A stretch of 64,000 nucleotides of DNA from Akkermansiaceae bacterium (GTDB taxonomy: Bacteria > Verrucomicrobiota > Verrucomicrobiia > Verrucomicrobiales > Akkermansiaceae). Shown here piece after piece: positions 18,001-24,000 of the stretch; within the stretch, counting starts at the first letter, position 1; each line of letters opens with the position of its first letter. Made by a program: the position numbers. The stretch lies in NCBI GenBank assembly GCA_051251915.1, contig JBPOGF010000018.1, positions 1 through 64,000 on the forward strand, read 5' to 3'.

Positions 18001-21000
18001 TGAAGGTGGTGAAGCCGGCGCCGGAGTTTTTGTCGCTGGTGGAGTCGGTGCCGAAGTGTTGGTTGATTCTTGAGTGATAGCTTTTTGATATGCGGTTGAA
18101 GTCTACGTAGGCGAGTAGTGGGCGCATGCCTTTGCCCATTCGTGCGTAGTTGGACTGGACGTAGTTTGAGAGTCTGTAGGTGACATCGGATTCTTTTCCT
18201 TGTTGGGGGATGTGGTTGATGAATCTCTGGAGGTTGATGGTTCTGGAGTGTGAGAGGAGGGTGAACATGGCCTCGAATCTGTTTTTGGGTGAGGTGTCTG
18301 ACTTTGCCATTTCCTGAAGTGCTGCTTCGATTTTTTCAGAGATGCGGCGGTTGTTTTTGTTAGAGTAGTAGGAGCTGTCTCCTCTGGTCTCGGTGTCTGA
18401 GAAGATGAAGTTCCATGCGGAGCCTGCGCGGGTGTGGCAGTCTGCGAGTGCGGCTCTGACATCTGGGTGTGGGTCTGCTAGGAGTTTGCTGATGTTTTCT
18501 TCATACCAAGAGGAGTTGATGGTGCCGAGGGTGTGCCAGGCGGCGCGTCTGACCCAGGGGTTTATGTTGGTGGTGAATGATGAGATGAGTTCGTTGTCTG
18601 AGCTGGTTGCCATTTTCCTGAGGAGGACTAGGCTGAGGATTTTGGTTTGGTCGTTGAGCTCTGGTTTGTTGAGTTGTTCGGTGCACCATTGGTGAAACAT
18701 GGTGCGGGTGCTGGCGTCGCCAGCGGCATTGTCTGTGGAGTAGCTGTAGGCATCTGCGCCGGTGATTTTGGTGTCTTTTTGGAGGAGGGCGTTTAGTGCG
18801 GAGTGGATGAGGACTTTGTTGTTTTCGTTGCGGAAGGCGGCGGAGATGGCTTTGGTGCGGATGTCTTTGGAGGGGTCTTGGAGTAGGGCTAGGATGATGG
18901 GGACGGATTTTTGTTGTCTGGGGTTGTAGAGTGCTTCTGCTAGGGCGGCGCGTTTGCTGATGGGCATTTCGCTGACGTTGCCATCGATGAGGGCGAGGCC
19001 TCGTTTGTCGCCAGCTTTGGTGAGGAGGAGGGCAATTTTGAAGGATTGCTCGGTGCTGGGTTGTGATTTAGCGAGGTCGTAGATGGTGTTGACGAGGTTG
19101 GTGATTCCGCCGGTGGAGGTGGCGGCGTTACTGGAGTCGATGGAGTCTGGGAGGACGGGCTTGCCGCCGGGGAGGAGGAAGTGATTGTAGAGGGCATCTA
19201 GGCTGGTGTTGGTGGGTCTGTTAGATGCGGTGGAGTTAGTGGTGGTGTTATTTAGGTAGCGTAGTGCGGGGCTGGTGCTGTTGTTGGCGGGGATGTCTAG
19301 GCTGTTGAGGATGGCGGAAATTTTCTCGGTGTTCTTGGATGTGATGGCGTCTGTTAGAGTGTTGGCGACCATGGCTTGCTTGGTTTTATCTTCATCGTCG
19401 GATAGGTATCTGAGGGCGGCGCAGGCGATGTCGATGTCGTTTGAGTTGGCGAAATGGATGAGTGCGTGGAGGGTGTTGGGAGTAGATGCTGAGAAGGCTT
19501 TGAGGGATGGGATGATGATGTCTGCGTCTCTGGTTTTGAGGTGGTCTAGGAGGTCAGTTGGTAGGGTGCTGTCTAGGCTGATGATGGCTTCTGTTAGTGA
19601 GGGAACCATGTCGTCATTTGACTTGTAGAGCTTCATGAGGAGGGGCTTGGCTTCTGTGAGCTTGAGGGAGACGGCGGTTTTGATGGCGTTGTGTCTGACG
19701 AATTCATCGGCATCATTTTCTAGTAGGTCTAGGATGTCTGGTGCGGCTTCGCGGACGGTCATTTTAGCGGCGTGTTCTAGGGCGGCTATTCTGACTCTCC
19801 AGCGGCTGTCTTTGAGTAGTTTGACAATTTCTAGGGAGTCATTTTTGGAGGGGTTTTTCTTAGTGCCGATTGAAGGCATTAGTCCGTTAGAGTCGTCTAC
19901 TCCCATGAGTGTTCCCATGGCTCCGATGGAGGCGATGACGAGGTCTTCGTCTGGGTGGGTGAGGAATGATCTGACGATTTCAAGGGATTTGGGGTCGCTG
20001 ATGTCTTTGAGGTTTTTGAGGGCGACGTGGATGACATTGATGTCGGTTTCGCGTTTGAGTTGGTCTGTGATGAAGGGGAGGACTTGGACACCGCCTACGG
20101 TGAGGATGGCGTCTACGGCTGTTTCGCGGGTGAGCGGGTCTTGGTCATCTACGTAGTCGCGGATGATGGGGATGGTGATGACGCCGAGGTTTTTGAGGCC
20201 GGCGAGGGCGATGAGTTTTTGGTCGCGGTTTCCTTTGACGAGGTCGCGGGCTAGTTGGCTGGCGTTGTTTTGGGCGGTTTTGATGAGGACTAGTTCGTAC
20301 TGAGCTTGTTTGAGCTGGGCGATTTTGGCGGCGTTTAGGGTGGGGTTCTTGAGGATGAATTGTTGGATGGCGGCGACGGCGTTGAAGTTGTCGCCTTCTA
20401 ACATGCGGGTGGCTCTGGTGATTTTGGAGCGGTTGTCTGAGATGAGTTGTTGGATGTAGGTTTGGATTTTTTCTGGGCTGAGGCTTGCTGATTTTTGCTC
20501 GGCGAGGAGGGAGGTGTTGTTTGCCCAGGTGGTCCACATTTCTAGTGGTTCTTGGTTGGTGTCATCGGTGGGGTTGAGCCAGGCGTTGTAGCTGTAGTCG
20601 CCGCCTGAGGCGTCTTCTAGGAGTTCGATGGCACCTAGTCTGGTGGAGAGTTGGGGGTGGGTGAGGAGGGTGACGAGTTGCTTTTTGGGGAAGTGTTTGC
20701 GTTTTTTGAGGGCGGTTTCTATGTGGGGGCGTTTTTCTGTGTCGGCTAGGTTGGTCATTGCTTGGGCCCATTGCTCTGGGGTGGCGCTATCTGATGTGAT
20801 GGCGTCTAGGAGCTGTTCGTCAGCTTGGGCATAGGTGTGAGTGATGCTCAGGGTGATGAGGGCGCAGGCGATGATGAGGAAGCGTTTCACGGTGACGGTG
20901 ACGGTGACGGTGTGATGGTTTTCTTAGTGGAGTAGCGCGTAGGCGACGATGTTTGCGTTGATTCGAACCGAATCATTGATTTCATCTCCGCCTCAACAAC

Positions 21001-24000
21001 AACAGCCTTCGGTGTTTGGGGTGTCGTTTAGGCCATCTGCGGTGTAGCAGACGACGAGTTTGTCGTTGAGGGTGATGCCTTGGAGGGTGGAGGTTTTGCC
21101 GGATTTACATTTTAGTTCTTTGATGGTGAAGATGGTTTTGAAGAGGGCGTGATCTTGCGGGATGTCTTTTAGGGTGTCTTTATCGAAGATGCGCTTGATT
21201 TCGCGGCTGAATGCGGTGGCCCAGGTCTCATCTGAGCAGGAAGGGGATGCTAGGAGGAAGCCGCCGTTGTTGAGGTATTTCTTGAGGTTTTCTCGCTCTT
21301 TGGTGGTGAGGGAGAAGTCTCCGGTGCCGGTCATGATGACGAAGGGGAACTTGAAGAGTTCGTCAGAAGACATTTTGACGGCTTTGAACCGGCGCTCTGT
21401 GGTGATACTGGTTTTTTGCTGGACGGTGGTTAGGAATTCATCGCTGAAGCACTCGGATGTTTTGGTGCCTGCGTAGATGAGGTTGGCGCATTGGACTGCG
21501 CCTTCTTTGGCGGATGCTGCGCTGATAAGGATCGCCGAAAGGGTGGTTAGGGCGAGGTGTTTTGTTAGATTTATGATTTTTGTTTTCATGAGGTTTGGAT
21601 GGCTGCGCCATGTCATTGGTCAGAGGTCATTTGTCATTGGTCTTGGTTGATGAAACGATCCTGGTTGATGAAACGGCTTGGTTGATGTTGTTATTCTTTG
21701 GGTTCTGGGTCGGTGTAGAAGCGTTTTATGGCGTCTTTGTATTTGTTTGGGATGTTGGTGCGGGTTGCTTGGGAGGTTTGGTTGGTTCTTTTTTGTTTGG
21801 ATTCTATTGAGTTGTTTTCGGAGACTTTGGATTGTTGTTGGGATTGTTTTCCTTTGGGGTTGTTGCTTTGGCTAGAGCCTAGGCCGATGCTGGGGTCGGA
21901 GAATTTGGATCGGTCTGGGCCGAACATGGGGGTGTTTTGGTTGCGGAGTAGTTGGCCGCCGCCACCGGCTCCGGCACCTCCTTCACCTAGTTGACCACCG
22001 CCTCCACCGCCACCGCCTTGGCCTTCTCCTTGGCCTTCGTTTTTGTTGTGGAGGGCATTGAGGAGTTGTTTCATGGTTTCGTGGAGTTCTTCGTTGGTTT
22101 TATCTTTAGGGAGTTTATTTCTTAGGAGTTCTGCGAAGAGGTTATTTTCCATGTCTACTAGTTGCTGCATGAGTGAGTAGGCTAGGAAGGCGTTGTCTGC
22201 GGCGTCGTGGGATTTGCCGAGTTGGGCGGAGAGGGTGACTGTGTCCATGGGGTCTGGGATGTTTAGCTCGGCGAGTTTTTCTAGCCAGATTGTTACGTCT
22301 GCTTGGAGGGGGGCGTGTTCTGGGGGGAGGTCAGCGGCGGCTTTTTTGAGGTCTTTGGCGAATTTGAGGAGGAGGGTTTTGTTTTTCTTTTGGGTGTTGC
22401 CGAGGGTGTTGATGCGTTGGGCGTTTCGGTTTATGCCTTTTTGGAGTTCTTTGGCGATGTTGGTGATGCGGGATGCGATGGATTGTTGGTTGTTGAGGAG
22501 CTTTTTGAAGATGGCGGCTTGTTGTGCGACTTCGCCCCAGCCTTTGAGGTCGTTGGCTTGTTTTTCTAGGCGTTGGGCTTTTTCTAGTGAGGCACCTAGG
22601 CGGTCTGTCATTTCTTTGATCTCTTCTGCATTGGGGATTTCACCGGAATCGAAGCGCATGCCTTGGAGTTGGCCGTGGTTGGTTATGAGTTTTTCGGCGA
22701 TTTCCATGGCGGTATCGGTTAGGGCTGCTTCTAGTTGGTAGGCTTCAAAGTCTTCGCCAATTTTGCGGGCCATGAGGTGTGATGTTAGGTGGGTTTTGAT
22801 GGCTGCATCGCGGGCTTGGTCGAAGTTTTTGGCTTGGTTTTCTTTGTTGGCTTCGTTGAGGGTGCGTAGTGATTTGACGGCGTTTCTGATGGCTTCAGCG
22901 AGGACTTTGTAGCGGATGTTGAATTCTTTGAGTTCGGATGCGTTGCGGAGGCTTTGGGCGTAGTCTTCTTCTGAGATGATCTTGACGCGGACGACGTCTG
23001 ATGAGCCGACGCCGAGGAGGGATGGGTTTTTGTCGTTGGCTTCGATGTAGAATTCTAGGACTTGGTCTTTTTCGACTCCGAGGGATTTGAGGTCTAGGGT
23101 TTGGGTGAAGTCGTATTGTTGGCGGCTGACGGTGTTGGCGAGTTGTTTGGCGCGGTCTCGGAAGCCTACGAGGGTTCTTACGAGGTAGACGGAGTCGATT
23201 TCGTAGTCGTCTTCTACGACTCCTGTTAGAGGGATGTTAGAGCTGGGTGTGGCGAGGACGTATCTGGCTGGGGAGATGAGTTCTGCGGCGGGAGCAAGGT
23301 CGGCGCGGGTGATGACGGCGAACTCTAGGGGTGCGGCTGAGGGGGTGTTGCGGATGTCTTGGATGAGGCAGGAGATGGATGTGCTGTTGTTGGCTGTCCA
23401 GTCGAATGTGACTTGGTTTTGGTTTTGAGTTTGATTTTGGGTGGTTGTGATGGGGTTGGCGTTGATGATGTTTTCTTTGATGGATGCAGTTGATTGATTT
23501 TCTGATTCGGTGATGGGTTTTACGGTGAGTTCTCCACCGGAGAGTGGTCTGTTAGAGGTGATGGAGAGGGAGATGTTAGAGCCGGTGATGACGTTGATTT
23601 CGTTTCCTTCGAGGGGGAATTCTTTGGTGGGTTGTTTGGTGTAGGCTGGTGGGGTGATTTTGATGGTGGCGGTGGTGAACTTGGGCTGGAGGACGACGCT
23701 GATGGAGTGCCATGGGCTGCGTGCTTTTCCGGTGGCGAAGGAGAATTCGATGTCGTGGAGGATGTTGGTGAATTTTTTGGAGAAGGTGTTGGTGGATTCT
23801 TGGTAGGTGTTGATGGTTTCTATTTCTCCTGTGTTTTTGTCTCTGATGTGGCAGATGACTTCTGCGTCTTTTTCTAGTTCTGCGCCGGTGATTTTTACGC
23901 GGACTTGGTTGTCTCCGCCGTAGACGGTGCTGGGGGATTGCTGGGTGATGTTGAAGATGAGGGGTGAGTAGGGTGGGATGTCTTGGGATGGGTGGAGGAG

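Follow-up and report, generated by a model that had tools for sequence, protein, structure and literature searches.

In the 64,000-nucleotide window analysed here, from an Akkermansiaceae bacterium, the in-frame TGA at 20995-20993 of a DUF4159 gene is, judging from sequence, very probably decoded as selenocysteine (Sec), to which we assign a probability of roughly 90%. Four lines of evidence support this reading: coding-type conservation beyond the TGA, Cys orthologues at the same codon, a covarying hairpin, and a complete Sec machinery. Together they bear out the initial annotation, which had placed Sec as the fourth residue of a C-C-C-C motif. As a whole, the data are most probably explained by a Sec-form exported DUF4159 protein with a CxxU motif, which would extend the known selenoproteins to an uncharacterised family of envelope proteins and indicate its likely reactive site. 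The gene and its key codons are as follows.

20924..21616, minus strand: DUF4159 gene including read-through of the TGA, 230 codons followed by TAA
20993..21616, minus strand: ORF up to the TGA, 207 codons, terminated by TGA 20995-20993
20993..20995, minus strand: in-frame UGA, read as putative selenocysteine, residue 208 numbered from the ATG at 21616
20996..21004, minus strand: three Cys codons, C205-C207, directly before the putative Sec; C205 and U208 are the CxxU pair
20924..20926, minus strand: true stop TAA, separated from the TGA by 22 open codons
21236..21238, minus strand: Cys127 codon (S-P-S-C), after strand 120-125, with subfamily conservation of at least 90%

The motif at the TGA is E-G-C-C-C-TGA-G-G, and the frame beyond it remains open for 22 codons (GGDEINDSVRINANIVAYALLH) to the TAA at 20926-20924, as had been claimed for this gene (g01276). 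The protein ending at the TGA matches Pfam DUF4159 over model positions 21-165 of 202 (93.6 bits), reproducing the truncated match described earlier, and the read-through protein matches positions 21-202 of 202 (106.7 bits). Since the model end is reached by the read-through protein only, this result supports translation past the TGA. All eight operon genes terminate in TAA. The true start is more likely the ATG at 21589-21587 than that at 21616, because in relatives the protein starts with the second Met (MKT...), and the N-terminus that would follow appears signal-peptide-like (...LISAASA/KEG).

The same codon was then compared among relatives. An in-frame TGA with an open extension occurs there in 10 distinct genomic sequences and 9 metagenomic loci, a recurrence that makes the pattern more than chance. 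A sequencing or assembly artefact, or a pseudogene recently formed in this one genome, would fit the single in-frame stop and nothing else; this reading was rejected, however, as next to impossible, because the TGA recurs across different assemblies and metagenomes. Other orthologues carry TGC or TGT, in line with the proposal that relatives keep either TGA or a Cys codon. Full-length orthologues are present in 7 of 24 other genus genomes (67-82% identity, aligned to residue 230), five with the in-frame TGA and two without, exactly the counts previously given; the genus total of eight orthologues comprises 6 TGA and 2 Cys forms. Among 27 loci of species-representative genomes we counted 8 TGA and 19 Cys forms, and among the 36 of 41 metagenomic loci that hold the motif, 9 TGA, 21 TGC and 6 TGT.

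Were the TGA an ordinary stop, the product would be a 207-residue protein ending in Cys-Cys-Cys, and the 66 nt beyond would be untranslated, either as a conserved element or as a remnant in decay. Gene callers do terminate there, and among the best 120 database proteins 18 end exactly after GCCC (one GCCC-ending protein is named by NCBI as from Rubritalea squalenifaciens DSM 18772), with 101 reading CCCCGG and one CCCWGG. The extension nevertheless behaves like coding sequence. Across the 10 distinct genomic TGA forms, the 22 codons after the TGA gave a pS of 0.60 and a pN of 0.095 (ratio 0.16), compared with a pN/pS of 0.195 for the 150 codons upstream, and variable columns amounted to 20/22 at third positions and 2/22 at second positions. 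Mean nucleotide identity in the same forms is 78% in the extension versus 24% in the 15 nt past the true stop, with conservation stopping exactly at TAA/TAG, and the extension is free of frameshifts and stops in 19 TGA forms. Truncation would also cost Pfam positions 166-202 and the last helix of the fold, since the extension corresponds to helix 216-229 of the structure model (mean pLDDT 89). We regard an ordinary stop as very unlikely, and the Sec reading as preferred.

Two nested RNA elements lie in this region.

20959..20975, minus strand: apical bSECIS-type hairpin, 7-bp stem UGAUUCG/CGAAUCA, loop GUU
20941..20993, minus strand: extended stem-loop around the apical hairpin, lower helices GGCGGA/GUCGCC and GAUG/CAUC, less conserved

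The hairpin reported earlier downstream of the TGA is thus present, but its distance of 20 nt was only approximate, as the stem starts 17 nt and the loop 24 nt after the A of UGA. This geometry fits the published bSECIS consensus of G within the first two nucleotides of the loop and a distance of 16-37 nt from the UGA (PMC13188914). A G-U-Y loop closed by 5-7 contiguous bp is shared by every TGA form, 10 distinct genomic and 9 metagenomic. The R. profundi sequence is the only one of 16 distinct genomic Cys forms with the hairpin, and none of 27 metagenomic Cys forms has it (each 0-1 bp), so that only the TGA forms and the Cys form closest to them have the covarying hairpin. Pairing reaches 94.3% in the apical helix, compared with 32-48% of cells in slid controls, and the helix contains compensatory pairs at 24-34 (CG 5, UA 5) and 22-36 (GC 8, AU 1). 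In helix 1 of the extended stem-loop, 85% of cells are paired and one pair is changed on both sides. Stem codons are fixed, Ser always being UCG and Arg always CGA, while other codons vary. Fold stability over 111 nt gave a z of -0.41 against shuffles and was equalled by 64 of 200 of them, and stability alone is therefore uninformative. The covariation measure 'further pair types' did not exceed shuffles (9 versus 10.0; reached by 497 of 500), and the hairpin matches no Rfam family. Under the Sec reading, this stem-loop inside the coding sequence would recruit Sec-tRNA(Sec) and SelB.

A genomic survey of the Sec machinery identified a tRNA-Sec by Infernal (58.8 bits, cut-off 47; anticodon TCA), which ARAGORN did not call, together with selA, selB and selD, each above its cut-off. 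The selD gene (Sec-type) itself carries an in-frame TGA in the context G-G-U-A-S-K. Both selA and an above-cut-off tRNA-Sec occur in all six TGA-bearing genus genomes; among all 25 genomes of the genus, 23 have selA and 19 a tRNA-Sec that passes the cut-off. The Cys-form genomes are two, G002 with a tRNA-Sec over the cut-off and G017 with a score of 44.6, below 47. Because the machinery is genus-wide, Cys-form genomes included, it is necessary but non-discriminating. In three further genes of the same genome, of thiol-oxidoreductase type, an in-frame TGA takes the place of the catalytic Cys codon, namely an ArsC/Spx-like gene (U-G-N-C), a Redoxin-TPR gene (W-U-A-G-C) and an AhpC/TSA-like gene (N-U-P-P-C), each with a 7-8 bp hairpin (loop GTT/GGT) 22-30 nt downstream.

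Read-through of the UGA as another residue, whether by a near-cognate tRNA (Trp or Cys) or because the code is reassigned, would agree with one JGI protein (P0009) that reads C-C-C-W-G-G, as expected if TGA were rendered as Trp by the pipeline or by the cell. However, TGG occupies this codon in 0/36 metagenomic and 0/27 genomic loci, and a hairpin of SECIS geometry accompanies a full Sec machinery. Gene lengths in the window are normal under table 11, which indicates that TGA is not reassigned. We consider such non-Sec decoding highly improbable.

Phylogenetic analysis placed the 10 Sec rows together with R. profundi in one clade (support 89/90), and the starred branches of the tree are compatible with a single origin of the Sec form. 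As all TGA forms fall in this one clade, their association with the hairpin amounts to little more than a single evolutionary event that was then maintained, and should not be counted as 19 independent cases. The ancestral residue at the site is Cys. The topology is consistent with a single Cys-to-Sec change on the branch leading to the Rubritalea clade, after which Rubritalea profundi probably reverted to TGC with the hairpin retained.

The locus resembles known bacterial selenoproteins, with E. coli fdhF as paradigm, in its in-frame UGA, its Cys orthologues at the same codon, the presence of selA/selB/selC/selD, and a stem-loop just 3' with a small apical loop opening with G, 16-37 nt from the UGA. 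Its CxxU redox-type motif also resembles that of the SelW-like and AhpD-like families (PMC13188914, Table 1). In contrast to the catalogued selenoproteins, which mostly adopt a thioredoxin-like fold, DUF4159 is GATase1/ThuA-like and carries the putative Sec in a C-C-C-U run. DUF4159 (PF13709) does not appear among the 119 families and subfamilies of the 2026 catalogue, as far as its accessible sections show (PMC13188914), and its absence from the selenoprotein catalogues consulted agrees with the earlier suggestion of a new selenoprotein family.

The product would be a full-length exported protein, ~200 residues long when mature, that adopts a GATase1/ThuA-like fold and in which the otherwise near-invariant C-C-C-C loop reads C-C-C-U. 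The solved DUF4159 structure 4i66 (Hoch_4089 of Haliangium ochraceum) was matched by Foldseek at E 3.4e-12 (TM 0.65/0.74) and by the subfamily profile at E 5.9e-19. Unlike the present protein, 4i66 has no elbow Cys and no CCCC loop, with one Cys there, which marks the CCCC motif as a subfamily feature. GATase1 domains and ThuA-like proteins follow 4i66 in Foldseek (E ~1e-3 to 1e-2). In the model, Cys127 appears to occupy the position of the nucleophile elbow of GATase1, and the CCCU loop ~80 residues later presumably lies at the GATase His/Glu place; unlike in class I GATases, no His/Glu triad was identified in the DUF4159 protein. Comparison of the subfamily profile with two-domain DUF4159 proteins by hhalign (probability 100%, E 2.5e-42) matched CCCC-G-G to their C-P-Y-C-x-G. 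These distant domains keep C1 and C4 and replace the inner two Cys by P-Y, L-I or P-F, so that C1 and C4 correspond to their CxxC and the Sec form to CxxU.

Immediately downstream lies a gene whose product may act on this motif.

16799..20890, minus strand: partner gene, 1363 aa, with signal-peptide-like N-terminus, HEAT repeats, Trx-fold domain and DsbD/CcdA-like membrane domain
17870..17881, minus strand: partner CxxC (G-C-K-K-C; C1004-K-K-C1007) in the Trx-fold domain

A homologue of this HEAT protein comes after the DUF4159 gene at 34 of 35 loci. Its thioredoxin fold is recognised at Z 10.8 (rmsd 1.9 A over 82 residues), and its membrane domain contains Cys1133 (NPC) and Cys1270 (LELACTGQVYAP); the CxxC and both of these motifs are invariant in 6/6 orthologues. 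As in DsbD/CcdA/ScsB conduits, a periplasmic Trx-fold CxxC domain immediately precedes a polytopic domain with an invariant N-P-C Cys and a second Cys in a later helix, the motif of which, we presume, differs from the usual CcdA one. Unlike in those conduits, the partner is fused to ~1000 residues of HEAT repeats, and its Pfam scores are sub-threshold (DsbD_TM 21.1 versus a gathering score of 27.1; DsbD_2 18.7 versus 24.9).

The redox- or metal-active centre originally postulated stays conjectural, although the profile alignment and the partner domains narrow it to the CxxU. On balance, we lean towards the CxxU loop being a periplasmic selenol/thiol redox centre, probably including elbow Cys127, which the HEAT protein would keep reduced or cycle with electrons that its membrane domain would draw from the cytoplasm. 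The main rival, metal binding, holds that Sec is real but serves as a ligand, with C-C-C-U, Cys56 and Cys127 binding either a metal ion or a cluster (Fe-S or Cu) and no selenenylsulfide cycling. In hydrogenases and formate dehydrogenases Sec is a ligand of Ni or Mo/W, and DsbD-family systems also take part in metal handling (ScsB, copper). Six Cys (C56, C127 and C205-208) show conservation of 90% or more across the subfamily, a four-Cys run is not what a simple CxxC oxidoreductase usually has, and the C-C-C-U loop, modelled without cofactor, has the lowest confidence of the model core (pLDDT ~72). Metal-binding CU and CxxU families are likewise among the catalogued selenoproteins (PMC13188914, Table 1). 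Against a ligand role, the retention of C1 and C4 with replacement of the inner Cys indicates that the core is a CxxC, and the constant neighbour combines a Trx-CxxC with a DsbD-like module, a thiol-reducing device; CPYC, moreover, is the classical glutaredoxin motif. We view metal ligation as possible but rather unlikely.

Upstream of the DUF4159 gene, the operon continues on the same strand.

21691..24525, minus strand: 944-aa protein, directly upstream of the DUF4159 gene, no family match
24703..33918, minus strand: rest of the operon, 737-aa through 1003-aa genes
26920-28929, minus strand: BatA_N+VWA, 669 aa
29004-29885, minus strand: DUF58, 293 aa
29898-30986, minus strand: MoxR AAA_3, 362 aa
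30907-33918, minus strand: 1003-aa protein, no family

The order claimed for g01282-g01275 was recovered in full: 1003 aa, MoxR (AAA_3), DUF58, BatA/VWA, 737 aa, 944 aa, DUF4159 and HEAT 1363 aa. Bacteroides Bat operons of the aerotolerance type likewise hold MoxR AAA_3, DUF58 and BatA_N+VWA in one co-directional block, whereas the 944-aa, DUF4159 (CCCC/CCCU) and HEAT-Trx-DsbD-like genes are added here. Speculatively, the DUF4159 and HEAT pair may form a redox arm of this MoxR-DUF58-BatA/VWA envelope operon. The 944-aa protein was detected upstream of DUF4159 by tblastn at 24 of 27 loci, the three misses being loci with little or no upstream DNA, and the 737-aa protein shows a weak VWA_2 match.

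The DUF4159 open reading frame (20993..21616, minus strand) closes with a TGA at 20995-20993, and the initial annotation had claimed that its frame runs on for 22 codons beyond this point. This was borne out: 22 further open codons lead to a TAA at 20926-20924 (minus strand). The read-through product comprises 230 residues and ends in ...T-E-G-C-C-C-U-G-G-D-E-I-N-D-S-V-R-I-N-A-N-I-V-A-Y-A-L-L-H. The reported end of the Pfam DUF4159 (PF13709) match at model position 165 of 202 was reproduced with the truncated form (93.6 bits, model positions 21-165), and the read-through form matched model positions 21-202 of 202 at 106.7 bits (gathering cut-off 25.9). 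The earlier counts within the genus also held exactly, with a full-length orthologue in 7 of the 24 other genomes, five of them with TGA and two without. Because relatives begin at the second Met, the ATG at 21589 appears a likelier start than the annotated one.

Orthologous DNA was drawn from 8 genus loci, 27 species-representative-genome loci and 41 metagenomic loci, the motif being present in 36 of the latter. Of the 35 genus and species-representative loci, 32 were parsed by script, three Cys-form loci outside the motif pattern being dropped; they gave 26 distinct genomic 3' ends, of which 10 carry TGA and 16 a Cys codon. At residue 208, the codon is TGC or TGT in 19 of 27 genomic and 27 of 36 metagenomic loci, and TGA in the remainder.

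Comparison of the 10 distinct TGA forms revealed a pS of 0.60 and a pN of 0.095 (ratio 0.16) across the 22 codons after the TGA, alongside a pN/pS of 0.195 across the 150 codons before it. Of the 22 codons in the extension, 20 are variable at the third position and 2 at the second. Mean identity is 78% across the extension and 24% across the 15 nt past the real stop, and neither a frameshift nor a second stop was found among the TGA forms. Together, these sequence patterns indicate that the 22-codon extension is under protein-level selection. The extension forms the last helix of the predicted model (residues 216-229; mean pLDDT 89.4).

The RNA directly past the UGA is able to fold into a long stem-loop that bears at its tip an apical hairpin, UGAUUCG-GUU-CGAAUCA (20975-20959, minus strand), with a 7-bp stem and a GUU loop starting 24 nt past the UGA. 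This geometry fits the consensus for bacterial selenocysteine insertion stem-loops (bSECIS), which PMC13188914 gives as G in the first two positions of a small apical loop, 16-37 nt from the UGA. Five to seven contiguous pairs around a G-U-Y loop were present in all 10 distinct genomic TGA forms; among metagenomic loci, 5-7 pairs occurred in 9/9 TGA forms versus 0-1 in 27/27 Cys forms. A single one of the 16 distinct genomic Cys forms has the hairpin, a sequence common to two Rubritalea profundi loci (L027 and L086), and the other 15 have 0-1 pairs. The hairpin has two compensatory pairs and is kept in 19/19 TGA forms (genomic and metagenomic), which do not represent 19 independent events because all TGA forms belong to one clade.

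Alignment of the 10 TGA forms showed the apical helix to be 94.3% paired, pair 24-34 being C-G in five and U-A in five, and pair 22-36 G-C in eight and A-U in one. When the 3' partners were slid as a control, pairing fell from 88.8% to 32-48%. The stem codons are fixed (Ser always UCG, Arg always CGA), and further pair types, as a covariation measure, did not rise above shuffles in these 10 forms. The 111-nt hairpin region was no more stable in folding than its shuffles, and an Rfam search at 20850-21100 returned no SECIS or other family, only chance-level matches. Ordinary termination, read-through without selenocysteine and error are, even taken jointly, very improbable explanations of the locus.

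The window's genome carries a tRNA-Sec (Infernal 58.8 bits, cut-off 47; TCA anticodon visible), at whose locus ARAGORN called no tRNA, together with selB (290 bits), selA (505 bits) and selD (379 bits), all above curated cut-offs. The selD gene has its own in-frame TGA, in G-G-U-A-S-K. Across the genus, 23 of 25 genomes have selA and 19 of 25 have a tRNA-Sec above the cut-off; being near-universal, the machinery does not separate TGA from Cys forms. A crude scan for in-frame TGA codons with a hairpin downstream (6 bp or more, loop G[GU]) yielded 216 candidates, 46 of them with Cys near the TGA. Recognised among these were the genes for SelD and the DUF4159 protein, along with three for thiol oxidoreductases in which the TGA takes the place of the catalytic Cys. 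Besides the DUF4159 gene, the likely selenoprotein genes are as follows (G000, the window's own genome; C, contig).

Likely selenoprotein genes recognised in the same genome
G000:C4:10582-10968, minus strand, ArsC/Spx-like with U-G-N-C (TIGR01617 86 bits, cut-off 75)
G000:C12:17632-19089, minus strand, Redoxin/AhpC-TSA plus TPR with W-U-A-G-C
G000:C26:15311-16165, minus strand, AhpC/TSA-like with N-U-P-P-C
G000:C1:268230-269294, minus strand, SelD with G-G-U-A-S-K

The hairpins of the three thiol-oxidoreductase genes (7-8 bp, loop GTT or GGT, 22-30 nt past the TGA) resemble that of DUF4159 (7 bp, GTT, 24 nt). The selenoproteome of this genome may be larger than the genes recognised by so crude a scan. 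Adjoining the Sec-type AhpC/TSA-like gene, a 434-codon frame (locus L142, G000:C26:13897-15201, plus strand) with a signal-peptide-like start has an in-frame TGA in ...F-F-G-D-H-R-S-N-C-U-Q-N-G... and a 7-bp hairpin with loop GTC 23 nt 3' of it. Pfam and NCBIfam gave no match to this frame, a possible further uncatalogued selenoprotein.

Database searches placed 1396 proteins in the DUF4159 subfamily at E <=1e-5 and 1949 representatives at E <=1e-3. Among the best 120 of the 1396, 18 end exactly past G-C-C-C, 101 carry CCCCGG and one CCCWGG, and each of the 18 truncated proteins shares 79% identity or more with the query. In a maximum-likelihood tree built from 27 distinct proteins, the 10 Sec forms group with R. 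profundi in one clade (support 89/90), with a minimum of two Cys/Sec changes. The Sec form may have a single origin in the Rubritalea clade, and the R. profundi TGC form, in which the hairpin is retained, fits a reversion from Sec. Across 401 genomes of the phylum, TGA occurred among the 150 listed DUF4159 matches (141 more lie outside this list) only in the window gene and in genome G416. The latter (G416:C105) was read as an ordinary stop, the TGA lying at the domain end and the downstream frame being unlike DUF4159. Among 150 listed matches from 151 Planctomycetota genomes (14 more outside the list), no TGA was found. Within these listed matches, then, no Sec form turned up beyond the Rubritalea clade.

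Three database entries deserve separate mention. The JGI protein P0009 (214 aa) reads C-C-C-W-G-G at the Sec position; the metagenomic locus nearest to it (83% identity) has TGA, and TGG was absent from the residue-208 codon in the collected orthologous DNA. The Trp of P0009 may be a TGA translated by a pipeline with another code. Two loci with this Verrucomicrobiales-type operon, L062 and L070, whose identity to the window protein is 77% and 67%, belong to metagenome-assembled genomes labelled Cryomorphaceae (Bacteroidota) and Vicinamibacteria (Acidobacteriota), respectively, and are probably mis-binned contigs.

Among the 68 sequences of the short subfamily, C56 never varies, and C127 and C205-C208 are each at least 90% conserved. 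Profile-profile alignment with two-domain DUF4159 proteins of about 500 aa (probability 100%, E 2.5e-42) placed C-C-C-C-G-G on C-P-Y-C-x-G. This placement identifies C205 and C208 as the family's CxxC, and hence the Sec form, as judged from the alignment, as a CxxU motif. Selenocysteine is known to take the place of Cys almost exclusively where the residue is chemically active, so residue 208 and the CxxC core of the four-Cys loop would be the working site of DUF4159, a family for which we know of a solved structure and of no function. The main rival takes the CCCU loop for a metal or cluster site, which we regard as possible though unlikely.

Structural comparison of the predicted model recovered the solved DUF4159 structure 4i66 first (Foldseek E 3.4e-12, TM 0.65/0.74, 206 columns), followed weakly by GATase1 and ThuA-like proteins. 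Unlike the window protein, 4i66 is without the subfamily's Cys residues. Cys127 lies just past a strand within S-x-x-C, most commonly S-A-G-C (59 of 151 aligned sequences); we take its site to be where GATase1 enzymes carry the nucleophile, and the CCCU loop to be where they carry His/Glu. The Cys pattern varies between DUF4159 subfamilies, with the same two sites occupied. In the two-domain proteins, both DUF4159 domains have D-A-C-C-G at the elbow, and the second reads G-C-G-W...C-P-Y-C-x-G.

The operon order given by the initial annotation (1003 aa, MoxR, DUF58, BatA/VWA, 737 aa, 944 aa, DUF4159, HEAT 1363 aa) proved correct. The MoxR, DUF58 and BatA genes are contiguous on the minus strand (AAA_3 210 bits; DUF58 151; BatA 55 and VWA_2 44.7), and the 737-aa protein has a weak VWA match. 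In 34 of 35 loci the DUF4159 gene is followed by one for a homologue of the HEAT protein, and in 24 of 27 it is preceded by that for the 944-aa protein, the three misses having little or no upstream DNA.

This HEAT partner (16799-20890, minus strand) has eight Cys, four of which are invariant in 6/6 orthologues: C1004-x-x-C1007, C1133 (N-P-C) and C1270 (L-E-L-A-C-T-G-Q), the last two both in predicted helices. Its residues ~990-1095 adopt a predicted thioredoxin fold (VIA-align Z 10.8, rmsd 1.9 A over 82 residues versus 7q3j_A; many thioredoxins at Z 8-10) with the CxxC at the start of helix 1, and Pfam Glutaredoxin matches 4 of 6 orthologues. The C-terminal domain scores below Pfam gathering thresholds (DsbD_TM 21.1 bits, cut-off 27.1, E 2.1e-4; DsbD_2 18.7, cut-off 24.9), DsbD_2 matching two of the six orthologues (E <=0.01). 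The Foldseek and VIA-align matches listed for the partner's C-terminal region were thioredoxins only and covered its first 100 residues, the Trx domain, so that they barely probe the membrane part. In the R. profundi-type Cys form L097 (G002:C1:1295600-1301200, ~3700-3830), the HEAT-Trx-DsbD-like gene falls into two ORFs, of 1005 and 337 aa, because the frame shifts by one base within a T/A homopolymer immediately ahead of the Trx CxxC (...KLVAVF / FEKEGCKQC...). Either the assembly is at fault here, or the partner is truly disrupted in the one lineage that seemingly reverted from Sec to Cys.

Sequence evidence shows the signals for recoding, the pairing of Cys with Sec at one codon, the equivalence of the loop to CxxU and the conservation of the gene pair; beyond them, we propose, at a probability of roughly 0.55, an electron relay from the DsbD-like domain through the Trx CxxC to C205/U208 of an exported DUF4159 protein and on to an envelope substrate. 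Electrons would leave the cytoplasm via the partner's DsbD-like domain and reach the fused Trx CxxC, which would pass them to the C205/U208 centre. The DUF4159 protein would then act on an envelope substrate tied to the MoxR/VWA parts. Its site would in this way be tied to a thioredoxin/DsbD-like module of its own, encoded by the next gene, which offers a testable hypothesis for MoxR-DUF58-BatA/VWA envelope operons, namely a thiol/selenol redox arm.

A more far-reaching and speculative proposal, which we hold to be rather improbable as a whole, assigns the catalytic role in Bat-like MoxR-VWA envelope operons to the DUF4159 CxxC/CxxU protein. With its glutamine-amidotransferase-like fold, this effector would work in the periplasm as a thiol/selenol reductase or isomerase; a HEAT-tethered Trx-CcdA electron conduit would recharge it, and the MoxR/VWA parts would position or remodel it. 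If so, the long unexplained 'aerotolerance'-type operons would be envelope redox-repair machines, and the Cys-to-Sec switch in marine Rubritalea would mark the nucleophile.

PF13709/DUF4159 is absent from the 119 families in Table 1 of PMC13188914 and, within its accessible part, from the deep-Sep table of new families (PMC12013277). No match was found in the accessible passages and one possibly incomplete supplement of BSepDB (PMC13326102) or, for the motif, in the accessible portions of the GOS 2008 supplements (PMC2398784). A candidate earlier report there, 'hypothetical protein GOS_A', comprises unrelated sequences in those portions. NCBIfam had no model matching the read-through protein, and a full-text search for 'DUF4159' returned, within the text accessible to it, the Pfam paper only. 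DUF4159 would add to the 119 published prokaryotic selenoprotein families one with a non-thioredoxin fold. Gene calls that cut the proteins past GCCC, such as the NCBI-named protein of the cultured type strain Rubritalea squalenifaciens DSM 18772, are due for re-annotation.

Further observations concern the operon itself, in which TAA is the stop codon of 8/8 genes. The 944-aa protein (21691-24525, minus strand), for which no family match was found, has a membrane segment at its N-terminus and, close to its C-terminus, a low-complexity stretch rich in Gly (...GQGEGQGGGGGGGGQLGEGGAGAGGGGQ...). The MoxR ORF (29898-30986, minus strand), which starts with GTG, shares 80 nt with the end of the 1003-aa ORF (30907-33918, minus strand); because its AAA_3 match begins at residue 84, the real start probably lies further downstream. 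The convergent neighbour of the operon (15546-16532, plus strand) encodes a PEP-CTERM protein, in which pAdhesive_15, a putative adhesive domain of the ice-binding-like type, scores 143.8 bits.
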